A program made the translations under genes and the position numbers. Below, piece by piece: positions 479 through 32,000 of a stretch of DNA of 32,000 nucleotides. The stretch is from Candidatus Saccharimonadota bacterium (GTDB lineage Bacteria; Patescibacteriota; Gracilibacteria; UBA4473), in contig JAUIFI010000001.1 in NCBI GenBank assembly GCA_030429505.1, positions 510,001-542,000 of the forward strand. The letters are read 5' to 3'. Below the pieces are notes generated by a model, which did not search any database, was not told the origin of the DNA, and worked only from the letters and a program-made list of their open reading frames with translations. Each line of letters starts with the position of its first letter. Position 1 is the stretch's first letter.

Positions 479-3400
479 ATGAAAAAACTCTTCAATGCCG
501 CTTTCCGAAACCAAGACAACACTTCAGGACGATTCATTTTTCAACGCCATATAAGCAAAATGGAAAAACTGTCTGAAGGCTACATCGATGATAAACTCGA
601 TGATCTCGCCAAAAGACAAAAAAAACAGCTTGAAAAATGGGGAATTGATATAGACACCAAAGTCTATGCAAATCCAAGTGTCAAAAACGGTCCTGAATAT
701 CAAAGACAACCTGATCAAAGTCATGATGAATCATTGGTATTTGCAGATGAAATGAACAAAGAAGAACTTAAAAAACGCCTTAAAGACGCTCCGGAAACCT
801 TCCCTTTTAACTCAGAAAACGTTCTCGATATCTACAACTTACTGGACCAAAACAGTAAGCACTATATCAATATGAATAGAAGTGGCCTAGAAAGACTAAA
901 CTTTGGAGATGACGATCTAAAAGAATTTATTAAATATGAACTAAGAAATTTCCGAGGACAAATCGAAGAACTTGTAGGCATAGGAAATCTAAACATCGGA
1001 AATACACAAGAAGTAATGAGACTCATAAACTTAGGAGCGAAAACTCCCCTCACGCTCCAAGAAACAGAGTCCTTTATTAACCTGATGAATACGGGAACAG
1101 CCAGTGGAACAAGCCTACAACTTGTAGACCTTCAAACACGAGGCGGTACAGACAATGTAATTGGATCAACACCTGTAAGCTCAAGAGCTGAGCAAGGAGA
1201 AGCGCACAAGGGAGCCACTTTCGATGTCCAAGTTCTTCAAACGGTCGTAAAAAAAATACAGCGTACATCTTATAATACTCCTACATCACAAGAAGATGGG
1301 AAATACGGACGAATGACTTTTTTACGAAACCGACCTTTAGGACTAGAACATACAAAAAACTTCAATATTGATGCCGGAGTGAGAGTCATTTACGTCGAAA
1401 CCGATACGAACGGAAATCCTGTTTCATTTGCCTCTCAAAGTGACTTTATGGTCGCTCCCATTCCACAAAATGAAAGACCTAAAGACTATCAAGATGCTCA
1501 AATCTACCTCAAACAAGGCGGAATAGCACAAGGGCAACCATTTTCTCCTGGAAAACCCCTTCTACAAAGCCAATTTAATCATTATTTTAAAAATGTAAGT
1601 GGCCCCTACACCATTGAAGGTACTCATACCAAAAAAGCACCAAATAATGCTTATACATATACATATAAATGGACTGGAGAAGTTATTTTCCAAATAGAAA
1701 CAAACGAAAATCTAAAACAACACACAGAAATTGTAAATACAGAGTATGGACAAATAATCAACCCAACCGTCATTCCTTGGAATAGTGGTGGACTCGATAC
1801 TCCAAACAAACCTATCACCAGATTAAGTGATAACAGAACCATCCCTAGCCCATCTGGACTTGACTTAAACGATCCTTCCACATCATTTGGAAAAGCAGAA
1901 TTTAACAATGGAGAAAGAGTAAGCTTTGAATGGAAAAATGAAGTCGAACAAGGAAATCAAACACGTCATGTCCCAAATCGACTCCACATCGAATTTCTAA
2001 ATCAACTCGTAAACCTGACACAAACCTATAACGAAAGTACACCAGAACCTTTCATTGTTGATGATCAAAAAAACTTCGTCTCAACAGATGGGAGAAACAA
2101 TACCCACAACAACGGATTTCAGTGGTACCCAGATAACCTCACCCAATCAAACGAAGGTCGTCCAATTCAAGCCGTAAAACTCGGAAATGAAACAACCACC
2201 GTTACACTTTCACACAATGGACATACCGCAAGAATAAACAAAAAAATTGGCGATAAAGTTACACTCAAAGAAGTAACCGACGCATTTAATGGAAAATTTG
2301 TCTCTGGACAAATCACCATCAGTGCTAACGGAGAGTTTAAAGATCCAAAAAATTACGAAAAAGTAACCATAAACTACAAACGAACTATAGAAGTTCTTGG
2401 ACAAAACGAAAAAGGAATAAGACACACGGAAATCCTTAAAATCCAAGATGGACAAGTCCTCGATCCGAAACCAACCATCATAGAAATAACTACCAATGAT
2501 GCAAACTCAGAAGTAGTTCCAGCAAAAGAAGTCCTTGAAGATATGATTATTAAAAATGAAGACACCAATCAAGAACTAGGAAGAATCAGTAAGTCAGACA
2601 TTACCCCATACCTAACCGGCAATCAACAATTCAATGTGGGCATGTTCCTTGATGCCATCTACAAAAAGAACCCTGACTTCAAATTTGAACCCAGCCACAA
2701 TATCATAGCCACTACGAAGGGACGATTTCTCGACAAAACAAAAAATCCTGCCGTCGAAACCAATGTCAGTTATGTCCTCGACATCGATCTAGAATACAAA
2801 GCTCAGAAAAAACACGTAGAAGTAAGAAACAACATAACCATCGACCTCAAAGCTGGTACTATCATCAAAGACCAACCTATCAGCATCCCTTGGGATAAAG
2901 ACGGAAGTAATAGTATCCATCCCACCGGAGCGGTACAACTCGAAATATTTGAAGCCACAGATCCAAGCACCCCAAAAGGCAGTATTTCAAAAACCGTTGG
3001 TCAAGATATAACCCTCCATGAACTTGAGAATATCGTCGGAAAAGGTATTGATGAAAACGCACAATTCATCGTTCGGCTCGCTCCAAATCCTACACAAAAC
3101 AACGCTCGAGTCGTCATGTGGGATAAAAGTGAAAAAGGTACAGTCACAGAAAAATATACCGGAGAAATTGAAACTGTTATCAACGTGAAAGAAACCATGG
3201 CTGATCGTAAAAAAGTCACCCGAAACGAAACAATAACCACCGACAAATGGGGTCGAATTCTTCTCAATGAAACCAAAGGAGAGATTGAATGGTACTGGAA
3301 CGAACCCGAAGGAGAAAAAAAATATGTACCAAACATGAAATGGGATGAAGCTAAAAAAGAGTATGTTCCCGGTAGTCCTCTCGTCAAACTCGAAATTCTC

Positions 3401-6286: not shown

Positions 6287-6336
6287 GCAAAAACAGAGAA
6301 AGAAGAAAAATAAAAAAACAAAAATTCTTTCATCAG

Positions 6337-6368
6337 AAAAAACCAGGGAAAACAAACCTGGTTTTTTT
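6337..6368 (+). terminator. rho-independent terminator after the 1,935-aa gene
   Basis: Stem AACCAGG (6341-6347) / CCTGGTT (6357-6363), extendable with A:T pairs. 9-nt loop, then a run of seven T (6362-6368). Lies 51 nt after the TAG. Confidence 0.7.
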
Positions 6369-6414
6369 ATAATCCCTCTTTATAAAAAAACAAAGACTCT
6401 ATAAATATAAAAAT

Positions 6415-6458
6415 ATGTACATCTTAAAAAAATGTATGATATTTTTTAACATACATTT
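6415..6458. promoter_or_regulatory. palindromic ATGTAYAT-type elements upstream of the DUF11-giant promoter (possible operator or activator site)
   Basis: Perfect palindrome ATGTACAT (6415-6422). 9-bp inverted repeat AAATGTATG (6430-6438) / CATACATTT (6450-6458) with an 11-nt AT loop. All share the ATGTA core. Confidence 0.3.
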
Positions 6459-6486
6459 TATCTACAATTTTTTCTTTGGAAAAAAT

Positions 6487-6516: not shown

Positions 6517-6551
6517 TGACAGGAAAAAATGAACTTTTATCGATTCTCTCT

Positions 6552-9500: not shown

Positions 9501-12500
9501 GCTGAATTTAGTACTTTCTTCCCATCACCAATTGGTCCTATCATTGAAAATACCAATGAAGTCTGCCATCCACTAAGCGGGTCTCCAGACGGAGGACCAT
9601 TTCCAAGCTTCGCTAAATCATCAGACCCTGAAGAAGAAGATGAAAATGGAGAACCAATAATGCTTCAAGTCGGACAAGAAATCGAATACACCATCAGACT
9701 TGACAATACCACAGACAACCCCATTGAAGACGTTACCATTACAGACCAACTTCCTGAATTTCTAGAAATTGATGAATCAAGTTTTCTCGAAATAGAATCT
9801 CCTCCAGGAAAACCATTCAGTTGCACCCTTGATCAACCAACTCGCACCATCAATTGTCAGTTTGAAGACGAAAATGAAGTTCTTGATCCAGACGAAGAAG
9901 TCGTCATCATTATTACCGGAACAATCAGCACGAATGCTGATCCAAATGAACAAATTTGTAATGAAGCGGATCTTTTATATGTAGGGGAACTTGTATCTAC
10001 TACCAACGAAGTTTGTCATAATATTTTAGACCCCGAAGTATTTCCGAGTGTCTCAAAAGTTACTGATCCTGAGACAGAAGATAATGAAGGGAACCCCATT
10101 CTCGTGTCAGAAGGTGACACAATCACCTATCAGATTATTATAGATAATACCACCAACGCTCCACTTGAAGATATTATCATCACAGACGCTCTTCAGGACG
10201 GATTAGAATTCGATGGTTTCACTGATAGACCAGAAAACGATAACTGTGAATACAATAACAACACAAACACTATCACTTGTACCTTTCCAGAACCTCTTCC
10301 CAATAACCCTACCGGGAATGATCCTGACAGCCAATTAATCATTGAATTTACCGCAACCGTTACAGCAGATGCCGCGGACCAAGTCTGTAATCAAGCTGAT
10401 GTTGAATTCGATGGCAACAGACTTATTAGATCTAATACTTCATGTCATGAAGTAGACGCCGAAGACACTATCACAGTTACCAAAACAGCCAATCCTTCCG
10501 ATGCCGAAGCTCTTCAACCAGGCGCTCAGGTCATCTACACCATAAACTTTAACAATCCTACCAATCAAGACGTACAAACCATCGAGTTCACCGATGAACT
10601 CCCAGAAGGAATTCTTTTTCAGTCAGTCGAAGCTACTAATCTTGATGCTGACGGAAACGTCATTCCACCAGCTAACCCTCCAGTATGTAGTGAGGATAAT
10701 AATAGCATTACCTGTGATATCGACAGCATCGTAGCAGGAGGTTCCCTCGACATCGTTATCACCGCAGTAGTAGAAGATGATATCTTAGACCGAGAAATAA
10801 ACGAAGTCTGTAACACCGCACGCTTCTTAGCCCTGACTCCACCACTCGATATCACTACTAATCAAGGAAACGAACTTTGTCACAACATCAACGAAGGCGG
10901 AGGGAATGAAAATCTCATCACAAAATCCTCTGAACCAGAGGCAGGAAGTCAAATTTCTGCTGGAAGCGATGTCTTCTTTACCATCACCATTAACAACATC
11001 ACTGATGAAATATTATCAGAACAAGAAGTTGATTCTGTCTTTATTGAAGATATCATCCCTGAAGGTTTCACCTTTGTCTCCGTAGACAACGATACTGAAT
11101 GCGTCGGACTCGATACGGATGATCCTGCTGACGAAGAAATCGACGTTGTTCAATGTACCTTTGACAATCTTATTCCTGGACAAGAAGAGACTATCATCAT
11201 TCACGTTACCGTCGATGAAGACGCCACAGGAGAAATCTGTAACACAGCCCTTATCAGATATGTAAATGGACAAGGTGAAATTGTAGAAGAAACTTCAAAT
11301 GCAGTCTGCCTTGACGGAGGAGGAGGCAATGGAACGGGGGGAAGCGGCAGTGGAAATTCCAGTGGTAGAACGAGTAGTGGAAGTGCTCCGAGTCATCCCA
11401 CCATTGGTACGTGTGTCCAAAACTGGAAAGGAAATCAAGGAGATACCGGTGACAGATGGCAATGTGTAGCTCGATACCCCAAACCACCTACTGCCCTCTA
11501 CGAAGATCCATATTACGACGCTTATGTCAGATGTAGCTCTGGAGGAGGAAGTGATACTGACATTAGTCTCCGCGCTAAGTGCTTAGTCGAATGGGCATAC
11601 TTAAATGGATATGAAATCTGTGGACCCGCACAACCCGGTTACACAAGCGGTACTGAAGGCTGGTTCTCCTTCGAAGACTATCTCTCCGCCAACCCCGGTA
11701 TTATTGTTCCCTACGTCGGAAGTCAAGATGCTGATCAAATATTCCGCAATTCGCAGAGTACTGGTCAAGAAGTCGTAAACTACCAATGTGGCGACTTATC
11801 CGTAAATATACCATGTGATAGTCTAGGGGCACAGAGCTATCCTCCAAGTATCAGTTCTCAATCTGATATTATCAAAACTATCGATAAGGACACTATTGCT
11901 CGAGGAGAAACTGTTACATACGACATCGAAGCCAATCTCAAACTTGATATCCCAAATCCTTCGAATCGAACAAATTTTCAATTCGAAATCCTAGACGGAA
12001 TCATTAAAATTTACGACTATACCGTCCCTAACGCTTCCGGAAACATTTGGTACCGAAAAGGAATCGAAAACAGTACCGTCTGGTCCGGAGGAAGTAACTG
12101 GAATAATCAAAGCTGGAATATTGATGGAGGTTGGAGTGCAGCACTCAAAGCTCCATCTGGAGGAGTAGTTTTCGAACGCCCCCTCACCTCAAGTGAAGAA
12201 AATTTACTCGAAAATGGAGTCCCCCAAAATTTCAACATCTCATACGAAATGGATAGTGAACTCGCTATTGATAGCGATGTAGCACAACTTCAAAACGTCG
12301 CATTCGCTGTCGTCGAAATCGGTTACATCTATAGTTACGATGTCATAGATCCAGTCGACGGTACAATCACAACTATTAGAAGCTCACTCAATGAGTATAC
12401 TTATTCCTTCGGAACTCCTAATGCTGACATATGTACTGCTACAGATATCAAAAGCCTATCTACCAAAGGAGCTCTCTCTACCGTCAATGTAGTAAGACCA

Positions 12501-13298
12501 TTTCTAGAAAGTAAAGGAGGCGGAAACATTGGCTTTGATTTTCAAAACAGTGCGGAGAAGAATTTATTTGGAAGCACAAAAAACATTACCGACACACTAG
12601 GAGACGTAATCGCAGATAAAACACAAACATCCGGTCAAGTATTCCAAACTCAAATTGATAGCCGATTTGATAACGCCAAAAAAGGAAATTTTGACATTAT
12701 CGGAGATTTTACTTCTCGAGACAAAGCACAAAAAGACGCCTTCTTCTTTAACCTTAAAAACAATCTCGATCGCACCCAAGGATACCAACCTCCACCTGCC
12801 AGAAACGCATGGAATTTTGTAAATAGTAATAGTTTTTATACTACCTTTGATAACTCTGGCATTTATTTTCTCGAAAACGGAAACGCTGAGATATCCGGCA
12901 CACTCAATATGGATGGACAAAGTAAAACCTTTATCATTGAAAATGGAGATTTATTGATCAACCAAAACTTTGAAGTCGAAAATGGATTCATTGCCTTCAT
13001 TGTTAGGAATGGAGACCTTATCATCAAAGATAACGTCAACCAAATCCAAGGATTATTTTTGGTAGAAGAAGGAGCTATTAAATCTGAATCTGATACCCCC
13101 ATTTTTGATACACAATTAATAGTATCTGGAGCTCTCATTGGAGACGCCACTGACCTAATCGGCGATAGAAGGTATATCGGTAACCCAAGCTTACTAGAAC
13201 CGAGCATCAAAATCATATCTGATTTGAGACTAATAGAAAAAACCCCACCCGCTCTGGAACAATTTTTAGGAAAAAATTGGCGACAAGAAGTTCGATAA
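6552..13298 (+). CDS. giant secreted surface protein with nine DUF11-type (conserved repeat domain) modules, a Gly/Ser linker, a Cys-rich domain and a beta-helix-like C-terminus (2,248 aa)
   Basis: Track ORF 6516..13298. ATG 6552 gives a classical signal peptide, MKKFLSTLFVFSSILLIQTALA/GKN. Repeats carry the DUF11 signature (…GDTITYTITVxNxG…V.V.D.LP.g..f.sv…) and each is closed by xxCNxA…xxC(H). Stop TAA 13296-13298. No LPXTG and no SLH. Confidence 0.9.
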   Translation: MKKFLSTLFVFSSILLIQTALAGKNDFSHTSLTNSPDCPEGPEVVRQSGDPFFEEDGDCRMAINRTLFPDGLDWNEFNRYIDSSSASSFRANAVPGNRFGSNPNWQDERDFFTAKKEHCADLDCERVFDHTITDIAQDDDIALHIYINNNARINEGYTAKNVSLTLDWNNPKEVKATINAGEIGYDNQGEGLWDRPNPIYDIVSLRFVEDDAQIQLALNQITQPNTHNEAGKTATWNLGDIESKSPGGINQIIVNFDVVAPKLEIIKTSDVDDGATVLVGDTITYTVQVENTGTMDLNDVILSDQIGAGQEYVNNSATNGATYDPDTNTVELLVPSLTIGDTASFSFQVTVTEIPEPANEVCNQAHGFDNNNEDPTITSSSEKICYDVEERPIELDLLEINKRAVTPSAGSIIKAGDTITYEITVTNPNDTDIPNVTLEDFLPDGVDLVNYTPVSCDESLPFIICDINPLRANETFTLRITVKVKDNIEAFFNGDLPDKLCNGSTVWFNEDLFPDASNNFLQSDQVCHPLQIETQAPLVNKTAEDENGQKLEDGDNIKPGDTITYIITVENPNEFQDLQDVTIEDVIPNELSIQSVTPNTNCNINGQTVSCTFATITAGSTVTIRVTTVVRDNAQAGEICNTADYQNNSNTLINPINNTGTNSTSPSSIFQNISRFLGINSFLDQIFNPGNIEDITAPNNNQNFTEDISPITATEGNNIICLEIQEEGEPELEITKTAEDENGATIQEGDEISAGQTISYVLTVENTGAEDERNVIVEDILPNEVEFKSVTPTPECLFDGRQITCTFDVIPAGDTVEIRIITTVQNNAQEGEFCNTSIVTMQGRQAPIDSDENCLRVGEGEEAEITKAANPTEGTEVESGNTITYTIRYENPNEFNVEFVSFTDELPNGLDFENVNTRVIDSNGDEVPKVDNEGNPDLTPYCVGDEGTDIVTCSFRFIPRQGFVEIIITATVNNDAEDEVCNIAEFSTFFPSPIGPIIENTNEVCHPLSGSPDGGPFPSFAKSSDPEEEDENGEPIMLQVGQEIEYTIRLDNTTDNPIEDVTITDQLPEFLEIDESSFLEIESPPGKPFSCTLDQPTRTINCQFEDENEVLDPDEEVVIIITGTISTNADPNEQICNEADLLYVGELVSTTNEVCHNILDPEVFPSVSKVTDPETEDNEGNPILVSEGDTITYQIIIDNTTNAPLEDIIITDALQDGLEFDGFTDRPENDNCEYNNNTNTITCTFPEPLPNNPTGNDPDSQLIIEFTATVTADAADQVCNQADVEFDGNRLIRSNTSCHEVDAEDTITVTKTANPSDAEALQPGAQVIYTINFNNPTNQDVQTIEFTDELPEGILFQSVEATNLDADGNVIPPANPPVCSEDNNSITCDIDSIVAGGSLDIVITAVVEDDILDREINEVCNTARFLALTPPLDITTNQGNELCHNINEGGGNENLITKSSEPEAGSQISAGSDVFFTITINNITDEILSEQEVDSVFIEDIIPEGFTFVSVDNDTECVGLDTDDPADEEIDVVQCTFDNLIPGQEETIIIHVTVDEDATGEICNTALIRYVNGQGEIVEETSNAVCLDGGGGNGTGGSGSGNSSGRTSSGSAPSHPTIGTCVQNWKGNQGDTGDRWQCVARYPKPPTALYEDPYYDAYVRCSSGGGSDTDISLRAKCLVEWAYLNGYEICGPAQPGYTSGTEGWFSFEDYLSANPGIIVPYVGSQDADQIFRNSQSTGQEVVNYQCGDLSVNIPCDSLGAQSYPPSISSQSDIIKTIDKDTIARGETVTYDIEANLKLDIPNPSNRTNFQFEILDGIIKIYDYTVPNASGNIWYRKGIENSTVWSGGSNWNNQSWNIDGGWSAALKAPSGGVVFERPLTSSEENLLENGVPQNFNISYEMDSELAIDSDVAQLQNVAFAVVEIGYIYSYDVIDPVDGTITTIRSSLNEYTYSFGTPNADICTATDIKSLSTKGALSTVNVVRPFLESKGGGNIGFDFQNSAEKNLFGSTKNITDTLGDVIADKTQTSGQVFQTQIDSRFDNAKKGNFDIIGDFTSRDKAQKDAFFFNLKNNLDRTQGYQPPPARNAWNFVNSNSFYTTFDNSGIYFLENGNAEISGTLNMDGQSKTFIIENGDLLINQNFEVENGFIAFIVRNGDLIIKDNVNQIQGLFLVEEGAIKSESDTPIFDTQLIVSGALIGDATDLIGDRRYIGNPSLLEPSIKIISDLRLIEKTPPALEQFLGKNWRQEVR
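7335..11315 (+). repeat. array of nine tandem DUF11-type domain repeats (about 125-145 aa each) inside the 2,248-aa gene
   Basis: Repeat starts at residues (numbered from 6516) 274 LEIIKTSD, 408 LLEINKRA, 548 PLVNKTAEDENG, 743 LEITKTAEDENG, 874 AEITKAANP, 1030 PSFAKSSDPEEEDENG, 1176 PSVSKVTDPETEDNEG, 1317 TITVTKTANP, 1466 LITKSSEP. Divergent at nucleotide level. A degenerate tenth copy occurs at ~11865-12000 (DIIKTIDKDTIARGETVTYDIE). Confidence 0.8.
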
Positions 13299-13300: not shown

Positions 13301-16300
13301 ATGAAATTTATAGAACCAGTAATCAATATCCTCAAAACTCATGTCCTATCAAGCTCTCTTTGGTCATGGGTTTTTTGGGGAATTATCGCACTCTTGGTTA
13401 TTTATATCTTTCGATGGATTCCGCGGTATATGTTTAGACGATTTGAATTCTTAGGAGATAGATTTGTCCATCTTCGAGTCAAACTTCCTCGAAAAGACTC
13501 TAAACTCGATACTGAAAAAAGAACAGAAAAAGATTTTCATGAACAAATTGCAAAAGCCGAACAATTTTTCCGCTCTCTCTCTGAAACAAGAGATCTCAAT
13601 CTCTACAATATGATCTTCAAGCGCATGCTATGGAAAAAACCACAAATATCCTTTGAATTACAATTTGAAAATCAAAAACTCTGGTTCACCATCGTATGCG
13701 ACAAATACTATCAACGCATTATCCAAAAACAAGTTACTTCTTTTTATGAATCTGCCGAGATTGAAATTCTAGAACCCAAGGAAAGATTTGAACTCAAACC
13801 CAAAGGTAATCACGTCAATGGATTCTATATGCACACTACAAAAGCTCCATGGTTTCCTGTCCAAACCTATAAAGACATTGAAGACGATCCACTCAACACC
13901 CTCGCAAACTCGTTCTCAAAACTCACCCCTGAAGAAACTGGCGCCATTCAAATGGTCATTCATCCAGCATCTAAAAGATGGCAACGAACAGCCACGGAAG
14001 TTGGAACACAAATGTTTAAAGGAAAAGGGAAGGACTCAAAAGGCGTTAGCATTCCTATCATTGGCCCCATTCTCCGTATACTTTGGTGGCCTATTCGAGT
14101 GTTATTCAAAGGCTATGATCCAGCCACAGACAGTATGGGAACGAATCAACCCGGAGCCTCTGGAGGAGACTCATTCGTCAGAATGCTACAAACCGAAGAA
14201 GAGATAGCCAAATCGATTGGAGATAAAGCCAACAGAGCTGGCTTCGAAACAGTCATTCGCGTGTTCGCCAGCTCACCAAACAGAAGTCGAGTTCAGGAAA
14301 TTTTAGACGGAATTTTTGTCTCATTTAATGTATTTGAAGGGAACGGTACCAATAGATTCGAAAATAGACGAATTATTCCTCTAAACATAATAAATTCTCC
14401 GTGGATTTTTCATAATTACCGTTACCGCTTGCTAGCATTTTTTGAAAAAAAATCCCTCCTCGCCACCAACGAACTCGCCACTATATTCCACTTTCCGGAT
14501 GCCAGATACAACAAAATTCCCACCATTAAATGGATGGACTATAAAGTCCTCCCTCCCCCTATCAATCTTCCCAACGAAGGTATTGTACTTGGAAATTCTG
14601 TCTATCGAGGCATCACCAAGCCAGTACAAATGCTAAGAGAAGATAGAACTCGTCATACCTACATGATCGGAAAGTCTGGAAGTGGTAAATCTGTACTTCT
14701 CTGGAATATGGCCCGCCAAGACGTAGCCAATGGTGAAGGAATTTGCCTTATTGATCCTCATGGAGACCTTGTAGAAGATGTCCTCGCCTGTACTCCAAAA
14801 GACAGAGCAAAAGATGTCATTGTCTTTGATCCAGGAGATAAAGAACGTCCCATGGGTTTGAATCTTCTTGAAACTAAAAACCCAGATGAACGAGATCGAG
14901 CTTCCCTCGATGCCATGGAAATTTTCATTAAACTCTTTGGAAATGAAATATTTGGTCCTCGTATCCAACATTACTTTCGAAACGGATGTCTGACCCTTAT
15001 GGCCGATGAACAAGAAGGAGCCACTCTTATCGATATTCCTCGACTTTTTATCGATGATGACTTTCAACGCTATAAAGTCTCAAAAGTCAAAAATCCCGTC
15101 GTACGAGCTTTCTGGGAAAACGAAATGGCAAATACAGGACAAAGAGAAAAACAAGAAATGATTCCCTACTTCACTTCAAAATTTGGTCCTTTTGTGACTA
15201 ATACCATAATGAGAAATATCATCGGACAAACAAAATCTGCCTTTAATGTCAGAGAAGTTATGGACAGTGGAAAAGTACTTCTCATCAATCTTTCCAAAGG
15301 AAAAATCGGAGACATCAACGCACAACTTCTCGGAATGATCGTCGTATCCAAAATTAATATGGCCGCCATGGGCAGAGCCGATATGCCTCAAGAGAAAAGA
15401 AAAGATTTCTATCTCTATGTCGACGAATTTCAAAATTTTGCTACCGATACATTTGCCTCCATTTTGTCTGAAGCCAGAAAATATCGACTCAATCTCATTA
15501 TGGCTCACCAATATATCGCCCAGCTTACAGAATCTCCCGGTGGTATCTCCATTGGACAAAAAGACAGTAAGATTCGAGACGCAGTATTTGGAAATGTGGG
15601 AACCATGATGAGCTTTAAAGTCGGAGCTGAAGATGGAGAATATCTAGAAAAAGAATACGCTCCAGATCTATCTCAACAAGACATCATCGGCATTGCTAAC
15701 TACAAAGCCTACATCAGACTCAATATACAAAACACCACCTCCCGACCATTCTCTATGGAAACCTTGTACGACCCAAGCCTTAAAAACGAAAAAGTAGCCG
15801 AAGTCGTAAAAAAATACTCTCGGATGAAATACGGACGAAAAAAAGAATTTGTCGATGCCGAAATCGAAGCACGCATGGGAATGAACGTCATTTCCAGTAT
15901 CAAAAAGAATGCTCAAGCAGACCCGACTGTTCACAACGACCTTCTCAAAGAAGACGCAGCACCAAATGACATAGAAGCCATTCAAAAAGCAGGAATTACC
16001 GATATACCAGCTGCTGCAAAAAAAGACGCTCCTCCGGGTAGCATCGCCACCATACAACCACCAGCATCTCCTGCTCCTCAAGAAACAACAAACACTCCTA
16101 TGACACAACCTGGGCGAACTCAACCAACACCACCGGCACCACCTATCGTTCCCCCAACCACCACACAACCATCAAAAATAGAAACATCTACTCTAACTGT
16201 AGAAACATCACCAGCATCCCCTGCTCCCCAAACAGCACAACCTGTTACCACTTCAATAGCGACACCAGAATCCTCTCCCCCACCGACTCAATCACCTGAA

Positions 16301-16411
16301 AATTCGGCAACACAAAACACTACAACAACTCCAAACATAGTAGCTGACGAACCTACTGCTCCCGCACCTTCTGAGCAACCTCTATCAGAATCAAATTCTA
16401 AAACGGAATAA
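13301..16411 (+). CDS. type IV secretion coupling protein-like P-loop ATPase (VirD4/TraG/TraD, TrwB_AAD_bind + TraG-D_C type) with N-terminal TM helix and Pro/Thr-rich tail
   Basis: ATG 13301 lies 2 nt after the upstream TAA. N-terminal TM helix LWSWVFWGIIALLVIYIF. Walker A HTYMIGKSGSGKSVLL (GKSGSGKS = 14669-14692) followed by ICLIDPHGDL. Walker B FYLYVDEFQNF (15407-15439) and ARKYRLNLIMAHQYIAQL. This motif order is typical of T4SS coupling proteins. Stop TAA 16409-16411. Confidence 0.8.
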   Translation: MKFIEPVINILKTHVLSSSLWSWVFWGIIALLVIYIFRWIPRYMFRRFEFLGDRFVHLRVKLPRKDSKLDTEKRTEKDFHEQIAKAEQFFRSLSETRDLNLYNMIFKRMLWKKPQISFELQFENQKLWFTIVCDKYYQRIIQKQVTSFYESAEIEILEPKERFELKPKGNHVNGFYMHTTKAPWFPVQTYKDIEDDPLNTLANSFSKLTPEETGAIQMVIHPASKRWQRTATEVGTQMFKGKGKDSKGVSIPIIGPILRILWWPIRVLFKGYDPATDSMGTNQPGASGGDSFVRMLQTEEEIAKSIGDKANRAGFETVIRVFASSPNRSRVQEILDGIFVSFNVFEGNGTNRFENRRIIPLNIINSPWIFHNYRYRLLAFFEKKSLLATNELATIFHFPDARYNKIPTIKWMDYKVLPPPINLPNEGIVLGNSVYRGITKPVQMLREDRTRHTYMIGKSGSGKSVLLWNMARQDVANGEGICLIDPHGDLVEDVLACTPKDRAKDVIVFDPGDKERPMGLNLLETKNPDERDRASLDAMEIFIKLFGNEIFGPRIQHYFRNGCLTLMADEQEGATLIDIPRLFIDDDFQRYKVSKVKNPVVRAFWENEMANTGQREKQEMIPYFTSKFGPFVTNTIMRNIIGQTKSAFNVREVMDSGKVLLINLSKGKIGDINAQLLGMIVVSKINMAAMGRADMPQEKRKDFYLYVDEFQNFATDTFASILSEARKYRLNLIMAHQYIAQLTESPGGISIGQKDSKIRDAVFGNVGTMMSFKVGAEDGEYLEKEYAPDLSQQDIIGIANYKAYIRLNIQNTTSRPFSMETLYDPSLKNEKVAEVVKKYSRMKYGRKKEFVDAEIEARMGMNVISSIKKNAQADPTVHNDLLKEDAAPNDIEAIQKAGITDIPAAAKKDAPPGSIATIQPPASPAPQETTNTPMTQPGRTQPTPPAPPIVPPTTTQPSKIETSTLTVETSPASPAPQTAQPVTTSIATPESSPPPTQSPENSATQNTTTTPNIVADEPTAPAPSEQPLSESNSKTE
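16027..16408 (+). other. Pro/Thr/Ala/Gln-rich low-complexity C-terminal tail of the coupling-protein-like ATPase
   Basis: …PPGSIATIQPPASPAPQETTNTPMTQPGRTQPTPPAPPIVPPTTTQPS…TSPASPAPQTAQPVTT…. The 21-nt PASPAPQ unit occurs twice (16061-16081 and 16211-16231, 2 mismatches). Confidence 0.8.
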
Positions 16412-21829: not shown

Positions 21830-21830
21830 T

Positions 21831-24227: not shown

Positions 24228-24243
24228 TGTTATTTCTCCAGAG

Positions 24244-27200: not shown

Positions 27201-29172
27201 TAACATAATATTCATCTCTATTAGTCCGAGTCGTCAAAGCTCCATCATTATCCTTCACCGTCACTCGAACCGAATAATTATGTTCTCCCAAAAACTGTGT
27301 CAGATTAAAAAATACTTCAGGAAATTCAGAGATCTGAACATCAGCTGTACGATTTTGCTCCATTATCTCAAATTTATACTGCACAATTTCTCCATCCGGG
27401 TCAGTAGCTCCCTGGACTTCCACCGGAAAATTCACCGCAAATTCAGGACCTTCTGTCGGATAAATAATCTGAGAAGCTTCAAGCAAAGGTGCAACATTCT
27501 TCACATGTATTGAAAAACGATCTGTATCACTGATATTCGGATTTCCCGGACGAGATACTTTCAATACAACTTCATGATGTCCGACATTCGTGAGTAATCT
27601 AGGAATACTCTCAGGTCCAGATACAATCCTACGATTCACAGACCATGTTTCCGTGAGACTCTCACTCGATCCGGCATTACCCTGTTCATCAATAGACTCA
27701 GACGAAAACTGCAGCCCCGAAATAGGTCGCTCAATATCCAACGGTGGTAAAACTTCCGAACCATTGAGCGTAACTTTCATACGAGCCAAAGGCAAATCAT
27801 CTTCTCGCACATAGACCATCTTTGAAACTGTATCAGAACGAATCTCGCCATCATCAGAAGGCTCCGAATCTGTAACTGTCAATGTCACTTTATGAGCCCC
27901 TTTCTCTGAGAAAAAAGCACGAATAATCGGAAAAGAAAGATCATCAAGAACTGTCGCAGCCTCCGAAAATTCCCATTTATAAGTAAAAGAATCATCTTGA
28001 GGTTGGGCCCGAAAAGAAAATGAATCTCCAATTCCCACAAAAGCAGGTACACGAAAATCAGCTTTTAAATCTTTTTCTTCCTCTTCTTCTTTTTTAGGAT
28101 CCCCTCTCACAGATAAAACCTGGGTAGTCGTATTCCTAATACCTAAATTTGACTGGACAGTAAGAGTGATCTCATACTGCCCCCCCGCTCCAAAAGAAGC
28201 AACAAATACAGGTCCCTTTCCCTCAACAAAACACTCATTCTTAGCGACATCACCAATTCCGGCAGATTCCACCCCCAAAACCTTACAAGTCCAAGTATAG
28301 TCCACCACTGATCCAATAACAGCACGAGACATTCCAGCATCAAAAGTAACCTTTTGGTTAGTCAAAGGACGTCCTGGATTCATTCGAAAAACAGCCTTTA
28401 CCCCCCCCACCATAACCGTCTTCGAAGCTCGAATCAGACCATCATCAGTAGAAGCTACTACATTAATTCTATAAGCCTTTTCTTGTCCATATCGATGTTC
28501 AACTGGCCCCTCAGAACTTCGAATACCATCACCAAAATCCCACAAAATTTCATTATAATTCGTATTTAGATTAAATGTTACCCCCGATAAAGCCGTCTCA
28601 AAAGGAATCGCAAAGCCATTTCCAAAATCTACCACACTCTCCCCCTCTGCTGTAATAAGCCCGGGAGAAATTTCCGACAAATCATCTTCCTCGGAATCAC
28701 CACCCGGATCGCCATAATCATACTCAGCCCCACTCCGATCATCATCCCCAGAACCAGCACTTTGAATCAAAGTATTAACCAATGCAAAAGACACCAACAC
28801 TACCAAAATACCAATACACGCATACAAAATAATTTTCTTTGCCTTTTCTGTATCTTCTCCTCCAACAATTATATACAAATAACCAGCATAAATAATTGCA
28901 ACTACTCCAGCCAATCCCAAAAAAGACAAAGTGAAGTTTAGTACATTCAAAATAAATTGACGTAATGAGGTATTATCACCAATCTGATTAAACTCTCCTG
29001 GGTGAGGTAATGAAAAAGAACCATCAGGCACCGGTCCCTGACCAAAAAGATCATCCACAACATTATTCACTGCAGTATCTAAAGGAGACAATAAATCTTG
29101 CGCTTGAACAAACTGAGTGCCCAAAAACAAAAATATCAAAGCGAAAATAAATTTTTTCATAACACTACTCAT
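24244..29172 (-). CDS. giant surface protein: signal peptide + T4SS-pilin-like (VirB2/TrbC-type) two-helix hairpin + about 1,500 aa of PKD/Ig-like repeats with one DUF11-type module
   Basis: ATG 29172 overlaps the upstream TAG by 8 nt (ATGAGTAG). An alternative ATG 29160 gives MKKFIFALIFLFLGTQFVQA/QD. Hairpin LRQFILNVLNFTLSFLGLAGVVAIIYAGYLYIIVGGEDTEKAKKIILYACIGILVVLVSFALVNTLIQ. PKD-like motifs ILWDFGDGIRSSEGPVEHRYG, YKWEFSEA, YEWSIDGIDE, YVWEFEMDDGE, FTWSFASDS, YIWHIAGPSGE, FDWTVQRPDGE, YNWRIIDPLGQ. DUF11-like PGDRITYTIRAKNPKKD…SSILPDHVQFQSVTPEEC. Stop TAA 24246-24244. Confidence 0.9.
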   Translation of the reverse strand: MSSVMKKFIFALIFLFLGTQFVQAQDLLSPLDTAVNNVVDDLFGQGPVPDGSFSLPHPGEFNQIGDNTSLRQFILNVLNFTLSFLGLAGVVAIIYAGYLYIIVGGEDTEKAKKIILYACIGILVVLVSFALVNTLIQSAGSGDDDRSGAEYDYGDPGGDSEEDDLSEISPGLITAEGESVVDFGNGFAIPFETALSGVTFNLNTNYNEILWDFGDGIRSSEGPVEHRYGQEKAYRINVVASTDDGLIRASKTVMVGGVKAVFRMNPGRPLTNQKVTFDAGMSRAVIGSVVDYTWTCKVLGVESAGIGDVAKNECFVEGKGPVFVASFGAGGQYEITLTVQSNLGIRNTTTQVLSVRGDPKKEEEEEKDLKADFRVPAFVGIGDSFSFRAQPQDDSFTYKWEFSEAATVLDDLSFPIIRAFFSEKGAHKVTLTVTDSEPSDDGEIRSDTVSKMVYVREDDLPLARMKVTLNGSEVLPPLDIERPISGLQFSSESIDEQGNAGSSESLTETWSVNRRIVSGPESIPRLLTNVGHHEVVLKVSRPGNPNISDTDRFSIHVKNVAPLLEASQIIYPTEGPEFAVNFPVEVQGATDPDGEIVQYKFEIMEQNRTADVQISEFPEVFFNLTQFLGEHNYSVRVTVKDNDGALTTRTNRDEYYVNNHSINHPPKVEVVPLNGSNAGDTETLFSFQAVTEDEDGDRLSYEWSIDGIDEVFPKRSILHYTFLEPGTYTVLVTVTDGIDEVTESLAVTVNEKVVELPVNFDTNQNFVIHRPFQLRGVSVGAVRYVWEFEMDDGEIEEKEGEVVRHVYNSVGEKSVTLTVEDKDGNTNSVTKTIEVENDGPLTALPVVRVNGKEQWIGDIIEFTEKDAVVFLSQSVDRSGKVSPNNNLEEIWYLNGTEIEIDRIVEALKLEQTATIRLVVKEKGATGVRSTDEKAFRIRKVEERVVDKVLPVNFDTDQLFVVGESFAFQGVSPNAISFTWSFASDSPETQNPLEKTGQRVEHVYQTPGDKEVTLTVSDRSGNTNSVTKTITVRTNGEPAALPKVMVNGEEQWVGDVIEFLPDDEVLFSSVSMDREGNVSPDNKLEETWLLNGEEIAPDKILSNLVLDKISFVKLMIEDKGGIFSRTLSDEKKFSVRLVTQRTVKNDPPFIKRFQVSPYGQGILEQSIRLFAEVSDKEDDPLSYIWHIAGPSGEEQKEETEIGILSYTPDVLGIYTFWVTVTDGLNTVNSRQHTLEVVNEEDALPNVSRIQVTPSEGNVGDIFVSTIRVGSARQEGVQFDWTVQRPDGEIETVKNRTTSFSYEAKIPGQHSIFVTVRNEKYSIDSPAAQFSVLDGVAPLAVVSNPSSPGRANDLEVPRQSSESVVFTTVDGTRMNFTQFVIFQATETLEQSQPEVVDGKWSLSPPKSFSSSSSSKTSILDDEGVPIKIVALVRQDAPKGRFCNISKILKPVRFSDGESTFCLVLEPRSSVLRVSKVLEDLKEGQKIFPGDRITYTIRAKNPKKDNSTFVISSILPDHVQFQSVTPEECSFDGQRTVTCQFGEKELFPLETHHTENLFVKPAQSNLGEKFLLSVKPEKESHTTLRYNWRIIDPLGQTTERSDAGFFILHIPSSEGLHVVEVDVFDGEKTLTYVTEFRVTSQEEGD
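25759..26916 (-). repeat. tandem duplication of a 193-aa (579-nt) two-domain unit inside the 1,642-aa gene
   Basis: Copy 1 VVELPVNFDTNQNF…GNTNSVTKTIEVENDGPLTALPVVRVNGKEQWIGDIIEF… and copy 2 DKVLPVNFDTDQLF…GNTNSVTKTITVRTNGEPAALPKVMVNGEEQWVGDVIEF…. The nucleotide anchor ATCAAAATTCACCGGCA occurs at 26890 and 26311. Confidence 0.8.
28762..28971 (-). other. T4SS-pilin-like two-TM hairpin module of the 1,642-aa protein
   Basis: Residues 68-137: hydrophobic helix, then the GGEDTEKAKK loop, then a second hydrophobic helix. This is the layout and loop motif of VirB2/TrbC-type and CPR/Gram-positive T4SS pilins. Assigned by recollection of the family, not by a search. Confidence 0.6.
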
Positions 29173-31078
29173 AATAGTAATAAGGAATTATATCTAAGGT
29201 TTCTGTCTCTGTATACTTCGAAGTCTTAACAACCGCCTTTATAATATGACGAGGGGCTATCACAAGTCCAGAAGAATCTTTTAAAGGTTCAAAATCAAAA
29301 TTATCTGGAGGTCGAAATTCAACAAAACGAGCAGCGCTACTTCCGATACGTGACTGAGATAAATTAAATTTCGAACGAGCGCAATGATTTCCCGCTCCCC
29401 CACCAGGACCCTGACATTCAAAAGATATTTCTTTAATATCTTTAAAATCAGGATGTTCTGTACGAAGTTTAATATCAAAAACAGCTTCAAACCCTTTATC
29501 TTCAGGAAGTGATTCTTTTGTCCCCGTAGTCCGAATCAATCTTCGCTCCAAAGCAACAATAAGCACATCATCACTTGAAAACTTTATCTGTTTATTTCGA
29601 CCATTATCCGGATCTTGCGCATCTTCAAAAATTTTTCGAGATGTATCAAATGAAGTTGGATACTTTTCTCGAGCTTCTCTATGAGATTCAGTCTCTGAGG
29701 AGTCGAAACTATCCGTATCCGTATTTTCATTTCCATTTTCATTTTCATCACCCGCCCCATCCCGACCACCAGAAGAACCATCTTTCTCCCTCCCATCTCC
29801 AGAAGAAGAATCTCGACCTTGTCCATCCTCGTCATCATTCTCACCAGCACCATCTCCTCCTTCTTCTTCAGGCTTCTCCACAAAAGCAGGCTCTGCCAAG
29901 ACCTTAAAAGTCTCCCGATATTCCTTATCAGTAACAACAGTATAGGTCAGTTCCTGATCGGGATAAGACCCAGGATAAGGCAAAATCATAGTAACCGTAA
30001 ACATCGGTTGATCTGGAGATACAGGAATAAAAGCATGATCACATAAAAGAGGACCATCGGTTGGACGACACATCAGAGTCACATCATTAACTCGTCCCCT
30101 CTTCTCATAAACCTCTTGATCTTCTGTGAACTTAATCATAAAAGTATGCTTTGCATAAATTTTACCATCTTCAGGATTGCGCTTAGTTTCCGCCCCCACA
30201 AGCAGTATAAATTCAATGATTTTTCCGTCTCCATCAGTCTTTTCAATCTCCTGACGAACTTCTCTCACGGCACCAAAACGTCCTGTCATAAACGTGCTAA
30301 CAATAGCATATGCTCCCAAAATCAAAATAATTCCTCCCACAACCCCAATCATTGTTTTCTTGGCTGTCTCCATCCGACCTGAATCACCAAAAGAAGTAAT
30401 CAATGTAAACCCTGCCCACACTCCAGCCACTACCCCTCCAGTCGCTGCTATCGTCAATAAAAACATTGTCCATCGCAAAGCTAAAAAAATCAAATCGCCT
30501 TGCGTTATAATACCTTTTTCAATATTACACCGCACAAAACGAGCACTACGTCTTAGTCCTCCTCCATCATAAACAGGTCGTTCTGCTGTCGTCGGGAAAA
30601 AAGCATCCAGTAAATCTCCCGTACCAACATTATTAATATCCGAAAAACCATTAATAACACTACCAACAGCCCCTACACCATCTCCCACAGCTCCCACAAT
30701 ATCTCCAACTCCACGAACAGCTCCTCCCACGCCAGCCCCTAATGCCTCTCCAAAACCAAGCTCTCTAGGATCACCGCCAGAAAAACCTGCCGCTTCCTGA
30801 ATACTTTCTCCCGCAGAATCAAGCCCTCCTGACAAAAAATTAAGCCCTCCTCCAACTAACTGAAAAGGATCTCCCAGCTGAATTCCAAAACGATCATTCA
30901 AAAGATCAAGTAAACATTCACTATCTAAATCCCCTAGTTTCAGACCATCAAGTCGAGAAAGTGTTTGATCATCCAAAATTCTCGCAGAAGCATGATTACC
31001 AAAAAACAAAGCCAAAAAAATTCCTCCCACCAAAACGGCTTGTTTAAGGCAAGAACAAAATCTCATAAGAAAAGACAT
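29165..31078 (-). CDS. secreted/membrane protein with Gly-rich N-region, T4SS-pilin-like hairpin, Cys-loop domain, acidic linker and a second Cys-loop domain (637 aa)
   Basis: ATG 31078 with hydrophobic leader AVLVGGIFLALFFGNHASA. Hairpin at residues 177-268. TLMCRPTDGPLLCD (30041-30070). Acidic low complexity EEGGDGAGENDDEDGQGRDSSSGDG…ENENGNENTDTD (29681-29875). ISFECQGPGGGAGNHC (29381-29416). Stop TAG 29167-29165. Confidence 0.85.
   Translation of the reverse strand: MSFLMRFCSCLKQAVLVGGIFLALFFGNHASARILDDQTLSRLDGLKLGDLDSECLLDLLNDRFGIQLGDPFQLVGGGLNFLSGGLDSAGESIQEAAGFSGGDPRELGFGEALGAGVGGAVRGVGDIVGAVGDGVGAVGSVINGFSDINNVGTGDLLDAFFPTTAERPVYDGGGLRRSARFVRCNIEKGIITQGDLIFLALRWTMFLLTIAATGGVVAGVWAGFTLITSFGDSGRMETAKKTMIGVVGGIILILGAYAIVSTFMTGRFGAVREVRQEIEKTDGDGKIIEFILLVGAETKRNPEDGKIYAKHTFMIKFTEDQEVYEKRGRVNDVTLMCRPTDGPLLCDHAFIPVSPDQPMFTVTMILPYPGSYPDQELTYTVVTDKEYRETFKVLAEPAFVEKPEEEGGDGAGENDDEDGQGRDSSSGDGREKDGSSGGRDGAGDENENGNENTDTDSFDSSETESHREAREKYPTSFDTSRKIFEDAQDPDNGRNKQIKFSSDDVLIVALERRLIRTTGTKESLPEDKGFEAVFDIKLRTEHPDFKDIKEISFECQGPGGGAGNHCARSKFNLSQSRIGSSAARFVEFRPPDNFDFEPLKDSSGLVIAPRHIIKAVVKTSKYTETETLDIIPYYYYE
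30275..30550 (-). other. T4SS-pilin-like hairpin module of the 637-aa protein
   Basis: SARFVRCNIEKGIITQGDLIFLALRWTMFLLTIAATGGVVAGVWAGFTLITSFGDSGRMETAKKTMIGVVGGIILILGAYAIVSTFMTGRFG. Same helix, G-D-x-x-x-x-ETAKK loop, helix layout as at 28762-28971. Confidence 0.55.
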
Positions 31079-31162
31079 TCAACGCTTCAAAAAGAAAGAA
31101 AAAATACACACCGCACATTGTCCCACGTTTCCACCAAAAGAGTCAAACACCACAAAGAACAC

Positions 31163-32000
31163 TTAACGAGTTCGCTCAGTATACAGAGGCGTAATAGAAA
31201 CAGACTGTGACTCCATATGTCCAGAATCAGTACGAATATTCAGTCGCATTTGATGAGGCGCTTTAACAGTTATTTTTGAAACACCAAAAGCATACGTTAC
31301 TTTTCCTCCCGAAAAAGGCACTGCAACAGAATCTTCAAAATCACAAAGATTTACCGAACCGGAAGGCTCACAAAAAAGACGAGCCGATTCAACAGCCCCA
31401 TGCTCAGTATCATTAAAACTCACTTCGATATCATAATTCATTGTAGGAAAGCGCCTTCCTGGACCAGGAGGAGTATTATAAGGCCCTCCTACCACACGCA
31501 AAACGCCAATAACAGTATCCGAACTTTCATAACCATCATCATAACCACCATTTTCTGATTCATTATCACCTTTATTGTTAGGCTGTTCCTGATCTCCAGG
31601 AGGAGATGATAATGGAATCGATGCAATTGGACCGAATCTAGACTGAAGAAAAGTATTAACAATAGCATACGCACCTAAAATCAAAAGAACGCCAGCTATT
31701 ACTCCCAAAAGAGTTTTTTTAGCTGTCTCAATACGATCACTACCAAAAGCAGTAATCATGGAAAAACCTGCCCACACTCCAGCCACAACTCCAGCAATAG
31801 CCGCTATAGAAAGTAGAAGTTTCGTCCATCCCAAAATCAAAGAAATCAAATTTTCCTGAGTCGAAAGTCCTCTATCGAGATGACACCTCACAATACGAGC
31901 ACCACGCTTTGATCCGGGTCCATCAAAAACAGTATTTTGAGCGCTTCCCGGAAAAAAAATATCCAAAACATCTTTCGTCCGAATGTTATTAATATCAGGA
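31163..32000 (-). CDS. paralog of the 637-aa protein (pilin-like hairpin + one Cys-loop domain); 5' end lies beyond the window
   Basis: The frame stays open upstream of the track start (TTG 31966) to the window edge, giving PDINNIRTKDVLDIFFPG…. This aligns with SDINNVGTGDLLDAFFPT… of the 637-aa protein, so the gene is 5'-truncated here. Stop TAA 31165-31163. A 20-nt identical run CCTGCCCACACTCCAGCCAC is shared with the neighbouring paralog. Confidence 0.8.
   Translation of the reverse strand, partial: PDINNIRTKDVLDIFFPGSAQNTVFDGPGSKRGARIVRCHLDRGLSTQENLISLILGWTKLLLSIAAIAGVVAGVWAGFSMITAFGSDRIETAKKTLLGVIAGVLLILGAYAIVNTFLQSRFGPIASIPLSSPPGDQEQPNNKGDNESENGGYDDGYESSDTVIGVLRVVGGPYNTPPGPGRRFPTMNYDIEVSFNDTEHGAVESARLFCEPSGSVNLCDFEDSVAVPFSGGKVTYAFGVSKITVKAPHQMRLNIRTDSGHMESQSVSITPLYTERTR
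31631..31903 (-). other. T4SS-pilin-like hairpin module of the truncated paralog
   Basis: GARIVRCHLDRGLSTQENLISLILGWTKLLLSIAAIAGVVAGVWAGFSMITAFGSDRIETAKKTLLGVIAGVLLILGAYAIVNTFLQSRFG. Confidence 0.55.

Follow-up and report, generated by a model that had tools for sequence, protein, structure and literature searches.

A DUF8128/coupling-protein-family ATPase among giant adhesin-like genes in a Gracilibacteria chromosome: probably three gene units rather than one apparatus

We analysed a 32,000-nucleotide (nt) stretch of contig JAUIFI010000001.1 (positions 510,001 to 542,000; hereafter the window) from a Candidatus Saccharimonadota bacterium of the class Gracilibacteria, an ultrasmall organism dependent on a host, in which a gene for a type IV coupling protein (T4CP)-family ATPase, g3, lies among genes for very large surface proteins. 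An earlier sequence-based note (the original prediction) had read these genes as one attachment or transfer apparatus built around the ATPase. Mechanical open reading frame (ORF) calling placed the genes in two convergent arms, one on each strand, meeting at 16411/16482, and confirmed the predicted content of seven large genes (637-2,248 aa) plus one truncated paralog: g1, g2 and g3 on the plus strand, and g4, g9, g10, g11 and the truncated g12 on the minus strand. The gaps between genes are short, with g2 and g3 2 nt apart and g10 and g11 overlapping by 8 nt. Six of the large proteins carry a signal peptide or transmembrane (TM) anchor by hydropathy and sequence, as predicted, and the 1,935-aa form of g1 has neither. 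The adhesin-type domains named in the prediction (DUF11, PKD, VWA with a metal-ion-dependent adhesion site (MIDAS), and SLH) were recovered by Pfam and by the MIDAS motif. Pfam and NCBIfam family scans found no relaxase, integrase, VirB4 or VirB6 in any window ORF of at least 150 aa, again in agreement with it.

The ATPase gene g3 (13301-16411, plus strand; 1,036 aa, identical to P0001) encodes a membrane-anchored protein of the DUF8128 family. A total of 1,183 homologs were recovered at E<=1e-10, labelled Gracilibacteria, Peregrinibacteria or Patescibacteria by their sources, and similarity to g3 falls off with these taxonomic labels. Mean column identity was 61% over 14 homologs (59-72% identity), with conservation along the full length. 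Homologs range from 781 to 1,381 aa, 593 relatives lie in metagenome contigs, and in precomputed Pfam annotations of the homologs DUF8128 comes ahead of the T4CP domains.

We compared gene neighbourhoods at approximately 90 loci with the same ATPase family, comprising close relatives (67-73% identity) and 80 metagenome loci (32-61% identity). The neighbours were mostly housekeeping genes. Among the five informative close relatives, which do not include L001 because its ATPase lies at a contig end, two had giant genes next to the ATPase. In L003, a 1,129-aa peptidoglycan (PG)-binding/Hint protein and a 1,437-aa DUF11 protein precede the ATPase, and housekeeping genes, adk and map among them, come after it; in L086, the order is a 2,723-aa giant, a 1,271-aa DUF11 protein and the ATPase. 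The DUF11 giant did not adjoin the ATPase in the other three or in any distant locus: relA and GIY-YIG genes lie upstream in L085; glycosyltransferase, PNPase and S15 genes lie upstream and yidC and rnpA downstream in L089; and pth and IF-2 genes lie upstream and HU and rpoB genes downstream in L090. Relatives readable only in genetic code 25 (60% identity) also had no giant neighbours. At the 80 metagenome loci, gyrB/gyrA recurred, TGT, pheT, L,D-transpeptidase and PG-binding/lytic transglycosylase genes were found as well, and a second full-length ATPase paralog was frequent. Since the family is conserved and its neighbours are housekeeping genes, the ATPase is a core chromosomal gene in a fluid, mostly housekeeping context. 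The predicted island organised around the ATPase was therefore not upheld, as only the DUF11 giant is recurrently adjacent to it. Synteny across relatives held for the g2-ATPase pair in two of the five informative close relatives, but no minus-arm gene lay beside such a pair anywhere.

This pattern has a published counterpart. A survey of 2,918 Patescibacteria genomes counted 5,713 T4CP homologs, of which 148 lay near virB4, and described relaxases as rare, VirB2-like pilin arrays as common and type IV secretion system (T4SS) parts as especially dispersed in Gracilibacteria (PMC12102498). Two tandem full-length DUF8128/T4CP paralogs, 33-35% identical including the N-domain, are present in many Patescibacteria (L022 9959-15576, L025 9977-15027, L017, L018 and L020), in agreement with the roughly two T4CPs per genome that have been reported.

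Several further features were seen around the ATPase in other loci. The gene lies a few kb from gyrB-gyrA in distant Patescibacteria (L060, L021, L039-L041, L046, L048, L062, L072 and L080), and the 658-aa and 835-aa genes downstream of it in distant loci, considered as VirB4 candidates, proved to be GyrB and GyrA. At the gyrB-gyrA-type loci, two small unannotated ORFs (~130 and ~145 aa, one with multiple TM segments) lie directly upstream of the ATPase, the second overlapping the ATPase start in L060; these could be unrecognised partner proteins. In L012 (6255-9854), L011 (1433-5600) and L008 (6305-9890), at 52-56% identity, the ATPase is immediately preceded, on its own strand, by genes of similar sizes (about 340, 465 and 220-350 aa). 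The L012 trio, the one that was scanned, encodes a peptidase M24, a PG_binding_1/3D protein and a DPBB lytic-transglycosylase-like protein, which are candidates for a VirB1-like wall-opening function.

The right flank was read from a Logan contig, reached via P0123, that is 100% identical to window positions 21163-32000 and ends 4.6 kb past g12. Beyond g12 it carries a 114-aa gene, a 960-aa gene and prfA, encoding release factor 1 (RF1; 3e-142), before the contig ends. The check for a flanking conjugation module (VirB4, VirB6, relaxase) found none in these 4.6 kb, and neither they nor the window link the ATPase to relaxase or DNA transfer and replication (Dtr) genes or to a T4SS channel operon. 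Family scans of the window ORFs detected no replication or partition genes, GC content is flat across the window (0.37-0.43), and the tRNA-Gly gene in the minus arm has no flanking repeats or recombinase. The window with its 4.6-kb right flank thus lacks the relaxase, integrase, replication genes, VirB4/VirB6 and deviating composition of a conjugative element or integrative and conjugative element (ICE). The part of the prediction that called the locus chromosomal was borne out by the absence of relaxase and integrase, the uniform GC, the conserved core ATPase and prfA in the right flank. The two genes of unknown function in the right flank occupy L087 1233-4466. The 960-aa right-flank protein is helical and Lys/Glu-rich with a Gly/Ala-rich hydrophobic stretch, and its composition resembles that of the C-terminal half of g1. 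It was considered as a divergent VirB4 and rejected, having no Walker A motif and no family match; the adjoining 114-aa protein is acidic and also has no family match.

The domain architecture of g3 combines features of two T4SS ATPases. A single N-terminal TM helix (13346..13402, hydropathy) is followed by a DUF8128 domain (13418..14596, residues 48-440, modelled with AlphaFold2 (AF2)), a T4CP-type P-loop ATPase core (14597..15913) with intact Walker A (GKSGSGKS, 14669-14692) and Walker B (YLYVDE, 15410-15427) motifs, and a C-terminal tail of 165 residues (15914..16408). The tail is rich in Pro, Thr, Ala and Gln, varies in length among homologs and is probably disordered, as its predicted local distance difference test (pLDDT) score is below 50. 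The core matched TrwB_AAD_bind (PF10412, residues 453-752) at 31.9 bits against a cut-off of 20.5 and T4SS-DNA_transf (PF02534, residues 458-784) at 25.6 bits against 20.1. TrwB was the best PDB sequence match (E 8.7e-6), and by sequence the proteins closest to the core are TrwB, DotL and TraD. The NCBIfam TraD and CD1115 matches fell far under their equivalog cut-offs, and weak CedB/CedD-type matches were found. By its P-loop with T4CP profile similarity and both Walker motifs, g3 thus has a T4CP core. An Arg/Lys-rich segment directly follows the TM helix, and by the positive-inside rule both domains of g3 would therefore be cytoplasmic.

The full-length AF2 model was poor (pLDDT 57), and its top Foldseek match was full-length TrwK/VirB4 (E 1.6e-8, ~800 aligned columns), with Cag-beta and DotL ranked behind. 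Modelled alone by AF2 with 88 homologs, the DUF8128 domain (residues 48-440) reached a pLDDT of 88.4 and a predicted TM-score (pTM) of 0.83. The top 14 PDB matches of this model were all TrwK/VirB4 (E 1e-5 to 2e-4, query TM-score 0.35-0.44), the next match had an E value of 0.025, and no P-loop ATPase (TrwB, Cag-beta, HerA) was listed, so the match must be to the N-domain of VirB4 and not to its ATPase domain. DUF8128 is accordingly predicted, at the level of modelled structure, to fold like the VirB4 N-terminal domain. The P-loop at about residue 465 has the same position as in pCF10 PrgJ/VirB4. At the sequence level, the VirB4 profile TIGR00929 matched g3 at E 0.0085 over 16 P-loop residues only, a PDB profile search with g3 returned no VirB4 chain, and hhalign of DUF8128 gave a probability of 3% against pCF10 PrgJ and no signal against PcfC; the DUF8128-VirB4 link consequently comes from predicted structure only.

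The N-terminal anchor of T4CPs usually consists of two helices that directly precede the soluble ATPase. Compared with TrwB/VirD4 proteins, g3 shares an N-terminal membrane anchor, the P-loop core with Walker A/B, two Pfam T4CP domains above cut-off and TrwB as top PDB match, but has one TM helix instead of two, an extra DUF8128 domain of about 390 aa between anchor and ATPase, no linked relaxase/Dtr genes, and the distribution of a phylum-wide core gene, often in two tandem paralogs. Compared with TrwK/VirB4 (R388 structures 7O43 and 8RTD), it shares the two-domain layout, the P-loop at ~465 and the match of the DUF8128 model to VirB4 chains, but its sequence match to VirB4 profiles is confined to the P-loop, it has a TM anchor and its core matches TrwB_AAD_bind. 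The predicted VirD4-like ATPase was hence confirmed by T4CP profiles above cut-off, but the description as only a coupling protein was incomplete, given the predicted VirB4-like N-domain. Such an N-domain in a T4CP family may be a new detail.

Immediately upstream of the ATPase, g2 (6552-13298, plus strand) encodes a 2,248-aa Sec-exported giant resembling fibrillar adhesins. It starts with the signal peptide MKKFLSTLFVFSSILLIQTALA and contains at least eight DUF11/CLIPPER-type stretches (Pfam, 5.5e-80) plus DUF7927, DUF7507 and DUF7619. DUF11 has recently been given the name CLIPPER, and in fibrillar adhesins it serves as a stalk domain with isopeptide bonds (bioRxiv 10.1101/2025.04.25.650565). 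Like these adhesins, g2 combines a secretion signal with a tandem CLIPPER/CLIPPER_2/DUF7619 stalk in more than 2,000 aa; unlike them, it has no recognisable LPXTG motif, TM helix, OmpA or known tip domain, and it bears a conserved C-terminal module not annotated before. The C-terminal 660 aa (11316..13295) had no Pfam or PDB match. Within them, the last ~155 aa (12828-13295) are the most conserved part and form a module that many giant proteins share: an exhaustive HMMER search (E<=1e-3) identified it in 207 representative clusters, always at the extreme C-terminus, in proteins of up to 2,638 aa that are CLIPPER-rich (the closer ones) or unannotated. A hidden Markov model (HMM) of the module hit near the ATPase solely in the window, L003, L086 and L047 (9 kb away). 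The g2 stop codon and the g3 ATG are 2 nt apart, and the two genes would be translationally coupled. An ortholog of g2 lies directly upstream of the ATPase in L086 (BLAST E 3e-111, aligned through the C-terminus) and in L003 (BLAST E 1e-56, C-terminal 630 aa), so the pair is recurrent, occurring in the window and in two of the five informative close relatives, and is the single conserved link of the ATPase neighbourhood. A C-terminal module shared among CLIPPER giants and linked to the ATPase in some genomes may be new.

The first gene of the plus arm, g1 (380/479-6286), encodes 1,968 aa from TTG 380 (public call P0121) or 1,935 aa from ATG 479. By hydropathy, it has one central hydrophobic segment (residues 1234-1252) and no signal peptide; the C-terminal half is helical and charged, with a K/R-rich C-terminus. 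We found no Pfam, NCBIfam or PDB match and no internal repeats in g1, and a search of 5.8 billion clusters returned g1 itself alone. BLAST showed no similarity to the giants in the same slot of L003 and L086 or to the 960-aa right-flank protein. The L003 slot (1818-5207) holds an unrelated 1,129-aa protein with a PG-binding domain and a C-terminal Hint/pretoxin-HINT domain, and different giant genes seem to replace one another in this position ahead of the DUF11-ATPase pair.

The minus arm begins at the convergence point with g4 (16482-18914), an 810-aa secreted protein with a VWA_2 domain (MIDAS DRSGS at residue 257) and three C-terminal SLH wall-binding domains by Pfam. Beyond an intervening block, g9 (21966-24170, minus strand; 734 aa) has three N-terminal TM helices and five PKD domains, and g10 (24244-29172, minus strand; 1,642 aa) has a signal peptide, a pilin module, at least six PKD domains, Big_9 and one DUF11; PKD matches in the window reached 1e-63 and 3e-56. 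A 193-aa unit of g10, consisting of a PKD and a second domain, is tandemly duplicated (window 26000-26900, residues ~754-1143), the copies being 50.5% identical (E 2e-61). The next gene, g11 (29165-31078, minus strand; 637 aa, 633 as called), encodes a signal peptide, a pilin-like module, a Gly-rich segment and a 370-aa C-terminal extension. Its paralog g12 (49% identity; 31163->32000, minus strand) is cut by the window edge, and the full gene extends to ~32387 and encodes 407 aa (P0123). Searches with g11 returned only itself and g12, and neither had homologs beyond this genome.

The three predicted pilin-like modules lie in g10 (28735-28971), g11 (~30269-30511) and g12 (~31631-31861), all on the minus strand. 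They are mutually alignable, with two hydrophobic helices and an E-x-AKK loop, and the three adjacent genes are 31-49% identical to one another. Their own PF18895 scores (25.3, 22.6 and 17.2 bits) are all under the cut-off of 26.6, but they align well with above-cut-off pilin genes of related loci. The g10 module, a VirB2/TrbC-like two-helix segment, has 43-44% identity with small pilin genes of L011 and L012 whose own scores exceed this cut-off, the best reaching 62.5 bits (E 3.9e-17) in L012. The modules thus appear to be genuine relatives of patescibacterial VirB2-like pilins, in line with this part of the prediction. Mature VirB2/TrbC pilins are small proteins of about 70-120 aa that pack into a helical filament. 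With these pilins and PF18895, g10-g12 share the signal peptide, the two hydrophobic helices and the short charged loop, but their modules sit just under the Pfam cut-off and are followed by C-terminal ectodomains of 130-1,500 aa, and g11 and g12 have a 150-aa Gly-rich N-terminal insert. As parts of proteins of 407, 637 and 1,642 aa, the modules do not have the small-subunit form of a pilin. The window does show the features of the patescibacterial T4SS array, namely divergent VirB2-like paralogs, no relaxase and a T4CP with no virB4 in the window or the 4.6 kb to its right.

A pilin HMM placed pilin modules within 10 kb of the ATPase in three of ~86 loci (L011, L012 and L014), which by our estimate is roughly the chance rate for one or two pilin clusters per 1-Mb genome. 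The ATPase of L012 has a double-pilin gene and the gene for a 692-aa PKD protein lying divergently at a distance of 3.6 kb. Pilin and PKD domains are fused within the 1,642-aa g10, and together with the L012 neighbours this fusion hints at a Rosetta-stone-type link between the two; pilin-PKD fusions may also be a new detail. The L012 double-pilin gene itself (5584-6261, minus strand) encodes a 225-aa pilin-pilin fusion with two tandem T4SS_pilin modules, the gene for the 692-aa PKD protein following it.

We read the window, with a probability of about 0.62, as ordinary envelope-gene-rich chromosome of a Gracilibacteria-class bacterium belonging to the candidate phyla radiation (CPR), made up of three independent units and not of one apparatus. 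The first unit (380-16411, plus strand) would be a local operon of an orphan giant, the CLIPPER adhesin and the abutting DUF8128/T4CP ATPase. The second would start with the wall-bound VWA-SLH protein and continue with the NUDIX, transporter and tRNA genes and the small genes of unknown function. The third (21966 to ~32387, minus strand) would comprise lineage-specific PKD-rich membrane proteins, three of which begin with a signal peptide and pilin module; this module could anchor the proteins in the membrane or insert them into a T4SS filament, leaving the large ectodomains outside. The adhesins, held by the C-terminal module, SLH domains, TM helices or pilin hairpin, would together form a sticky surface that holds a host cell. 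The ATPase would act as a membrane hexamer with a dispersed chromosomal T4SS-like machinery (VirB4, VirB3, VirB6 and TrsD) encoded elsewhere. Co-location would then be explained by how densely these genomes are packed with such genes, together with the one local operon of g2 and the ATPase.

Several observations weigh against this reading of the window as separate units. The 2-nt gap between g2 and the ATPase and the orthologous pairs in L003 and L086 mean that the pair may be functionally coupled. L011, L012 and L014 have pilin genes within 4-5 kb of the ATPase, L012 a PKD protein there as well, and the fusion of pilin and PKD in g10 hints at a real link among the parts. Five genes encoding at least ~1,000 aa fall in ~36 kb of a 1.02-Mb genome, a clustering of giant genes that may be beyond chance. 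The flank evidence covers the right side, over 4.6 kb, and VirB4 and VirB6 are presumed, following published work, to be encoded at other sites of this genome.

The same observations could be read, as originally predicted, as one dedicated attachment or transfer apparatus, in which the ATPase energises export or assembly, the pilin-module proteins form a conduit or filament and the giants dock the host. All parts lie within 32 kb, the g2-ATPase coupling is kept in two relatives, and both the pilin genes near the ATPase in three loci (with the PKD gene in L012) and the g10 fusion would fit; a T4SS with a pilin array is, moreover, essential for epibiotic growth in a Saccharibacterium (PMC12857230). 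We nevertheless consider it unlikely: the ATPase has housekeeping neighbours in most of the ~90 loci, no relative has a minus-arm gene beside the g2-ATPase pair, the minus arm is broken up by NUDIX, transporter and tRNA genes, and pilin co-location occurs at about the chance rate. Being orphans, g1, g11 and g12 cannot belong to any conserved complex, and the T4CP has been reported as dispensable in S. epibionticum (PMC12102498).

A second explanation, which we regard as quite unlikely, is that the ATPase was exapted from a classical T4SS and in this lineage serves the upstream giant adhesin, for instance via its C-terminal module, in export, anchoring or assembly, or that it works more generally as a VirB4-independent translocase of DNA or protein. 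The 2-nt gap, the conserved adjacency and the orthologous C-terminal domains of the g2 proteins speak for it, as does a module that some 200 clusters of giant proteins have in common and that, in the manner of a sorting signal, is terminal in all of them. Members of the family are mostly remote from virB4 and were dispensable where this was tested, and exaptation was raised by the authors of that work (PMC12102498); the VirB4-like N-domain suggests that the protein could act without a separate VirB4, and the weak CedB/CedD-type matches would also be compatible. However, g2 has a normal Sec signal peptide and so does not need a cytoplasmic coupling ATPase, and the adjacency is absent in three of five informative close relatives (L085, L089 and L090) and in all distant ones. 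The ATPase family is also far commoner than the C-terminal module, and its role must therefore be a broader one.

A bolder version, which we hold to be distinctly improbable, is a T4SS-derived pathway for adhesin display in which the DUF8128 protein is an intermediate, in evolution and function, between VirB4 and VirD4 and a stand-alone translocation ATPase conserved across Patescibacteria, dedicated in this lineage to CLIPPER giants with a sorting module, with pilin hairpins reused as PKD anchors and no injector of DNA or effectors. An origin of the region from a mobile element, decayed or unconventional (an ICE or conjugative-plasmid remnant keeping only its coupling protein and pilins), is very improbable: the ATPase has its best matches among conjugative TraD, TrwB and CD1115-type T4CPs, the pilin modules weakly resemble ICE pilins (NF045849) and a tRNA gene is present, but the window holds no integrase, relaxase, replication or partition gene, GC is uniform, the right flank is prfA, the tRNA gene is without repeats or recombinase, and the ATPase tracks taxonomy amid housekeeping genes across Patescibacteria.

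Our preferred reading, ordinary chromosome in three units, places the locus close to two published cases. With the T4SS-like system that Patescibacteria encode on the chromosome (Quinonero-Coronel et al. 2025, PMC12102498; Wang et al. 2023, reviewed by PMC12857230) it shares a T4CP away from virB4, a low-identity VirB2-like paralog array, the lack of a relaxase, a chromosomal location and a presumed epibiotic host-interaction role. It differs in having no VirB4, VirB3, VirB6 or TrsD in the 32 kb and 4.6 kb to the right, in carrying pilin modules at the N-termini of 407-1,642-aa proteins instead of small pilins, and in pairing the ATPase with a CLIPPER giant. The giant PKD/DUF11 membrane proteins of Vampirococcus lugosii (Absconditabacteria), for which host attachment was proposed (PMC8080830), are similar in size (1,400-4,100 aa), in their PKD, DUF11 and integrin/VWA-type domains and in belonging to a ~1-Mb CPR genome. 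They are different proteins, however, g1, g11 and g12 being orphans, and T4CP linkage and pilin-module fusion are unreported in PMC8080830. Functionally, the window adhesins are best read as genes of the "elaborate sticky surface" known from predatory and epibiotic CPR bacteria (PMC8080830), and the ATPase as one part of the dispersed T4SS-like system of Patescibacteria. T4CPs standing alone at a distance from virB4, VirB2-like arrays and the absence of relaxases are already published as the Patescibacteria norm (PMC12102498), as are giant PKD/DUF11 proteins (PMC8080830).

These comparisons correct an over-reading, as a lone coupling protein beside adhesins is the normal state in these genomes and no new machine. 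The locus matters for the question of how CPR bacteria hold on to their hosts and feed on them; the role of their essential T4SS-like genes has been called "completely unknown" (PMC11665869; also PMC12857230). A predicted VirB4-type N-domain in a phylum-wide T4CP-like ATPase bears on the divergence of the two T4SS ATPase families and on whether this protein can work by itself. In the recurrent operon of ATPase and CLIPPER giant, the shared C-terminal module is a candidate signal by which giant surface proteins could be sorted or anchored, and VirB2-like modules fused to large PKD ectodomains hint at cargo displayed by patescibacterial pilin arrays.

The window holds further features. At its left edge, the 3' end of an upstream gene of unknown function, cut by the window edge, occupies 1..284 (plus strand; 94 codons, frame +2 open from base 2 to a stop at ~284). 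A block with no recognisable surface or secretion role (18989-21905, minus strand) splits the minus arm and comprises a NUDIX hydrolase gene (18989-19471), genes for two small proteins of unknown function (19489-19980 and 20008-20616), a Na/Ca exchanger gene (20679-21635) and tRNA-Gly(TCC) (21831-21905). The tRNA was the sole Rfam match in the window, and promoter and terminator scans of the window stayed at chance level. The adjacent ORFs for the two small proteins (19489-20616, minus strand; 202 and 163 aa), which may be two genes or one split gene, had no family match, and the 163-aa protein ends in two hydrophobic segments.

The exchanger gene contains one in-frame TGA (21435-21437). Reading this TGA as Gly yields a full-length, 318-aa NCX_Mj-like protein (E 6e-37), and the codon falls where the protein's own second alpha-repeat has Gly (AVVQ*SSEIVAGN versus AAKQGNAEMAVGN). 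All 12 window genes end in TAA or TAG and none in TGA, so their ends are valid whether code 11 or code 25 is applied. To judge from these sequence features, genetic code 25 is probably in use, TGA codons being very rare; a pseudogene or a sequencing error is the alternative explanation of the exchanger TGA. RF1 is the release factor expected to persist in a code-25 organism, and its gene prfA lies near the locus (L087 95-1153, ~4 kb past the right window edge). In L026, L029, L035, L069, L081, L013 and L014, the ATPase (46-61% identical) is open only in table 25. Some gene calls end in TGA in the closer relatives L003, L085 and L086, and TGA usage seems to vary within the clade.

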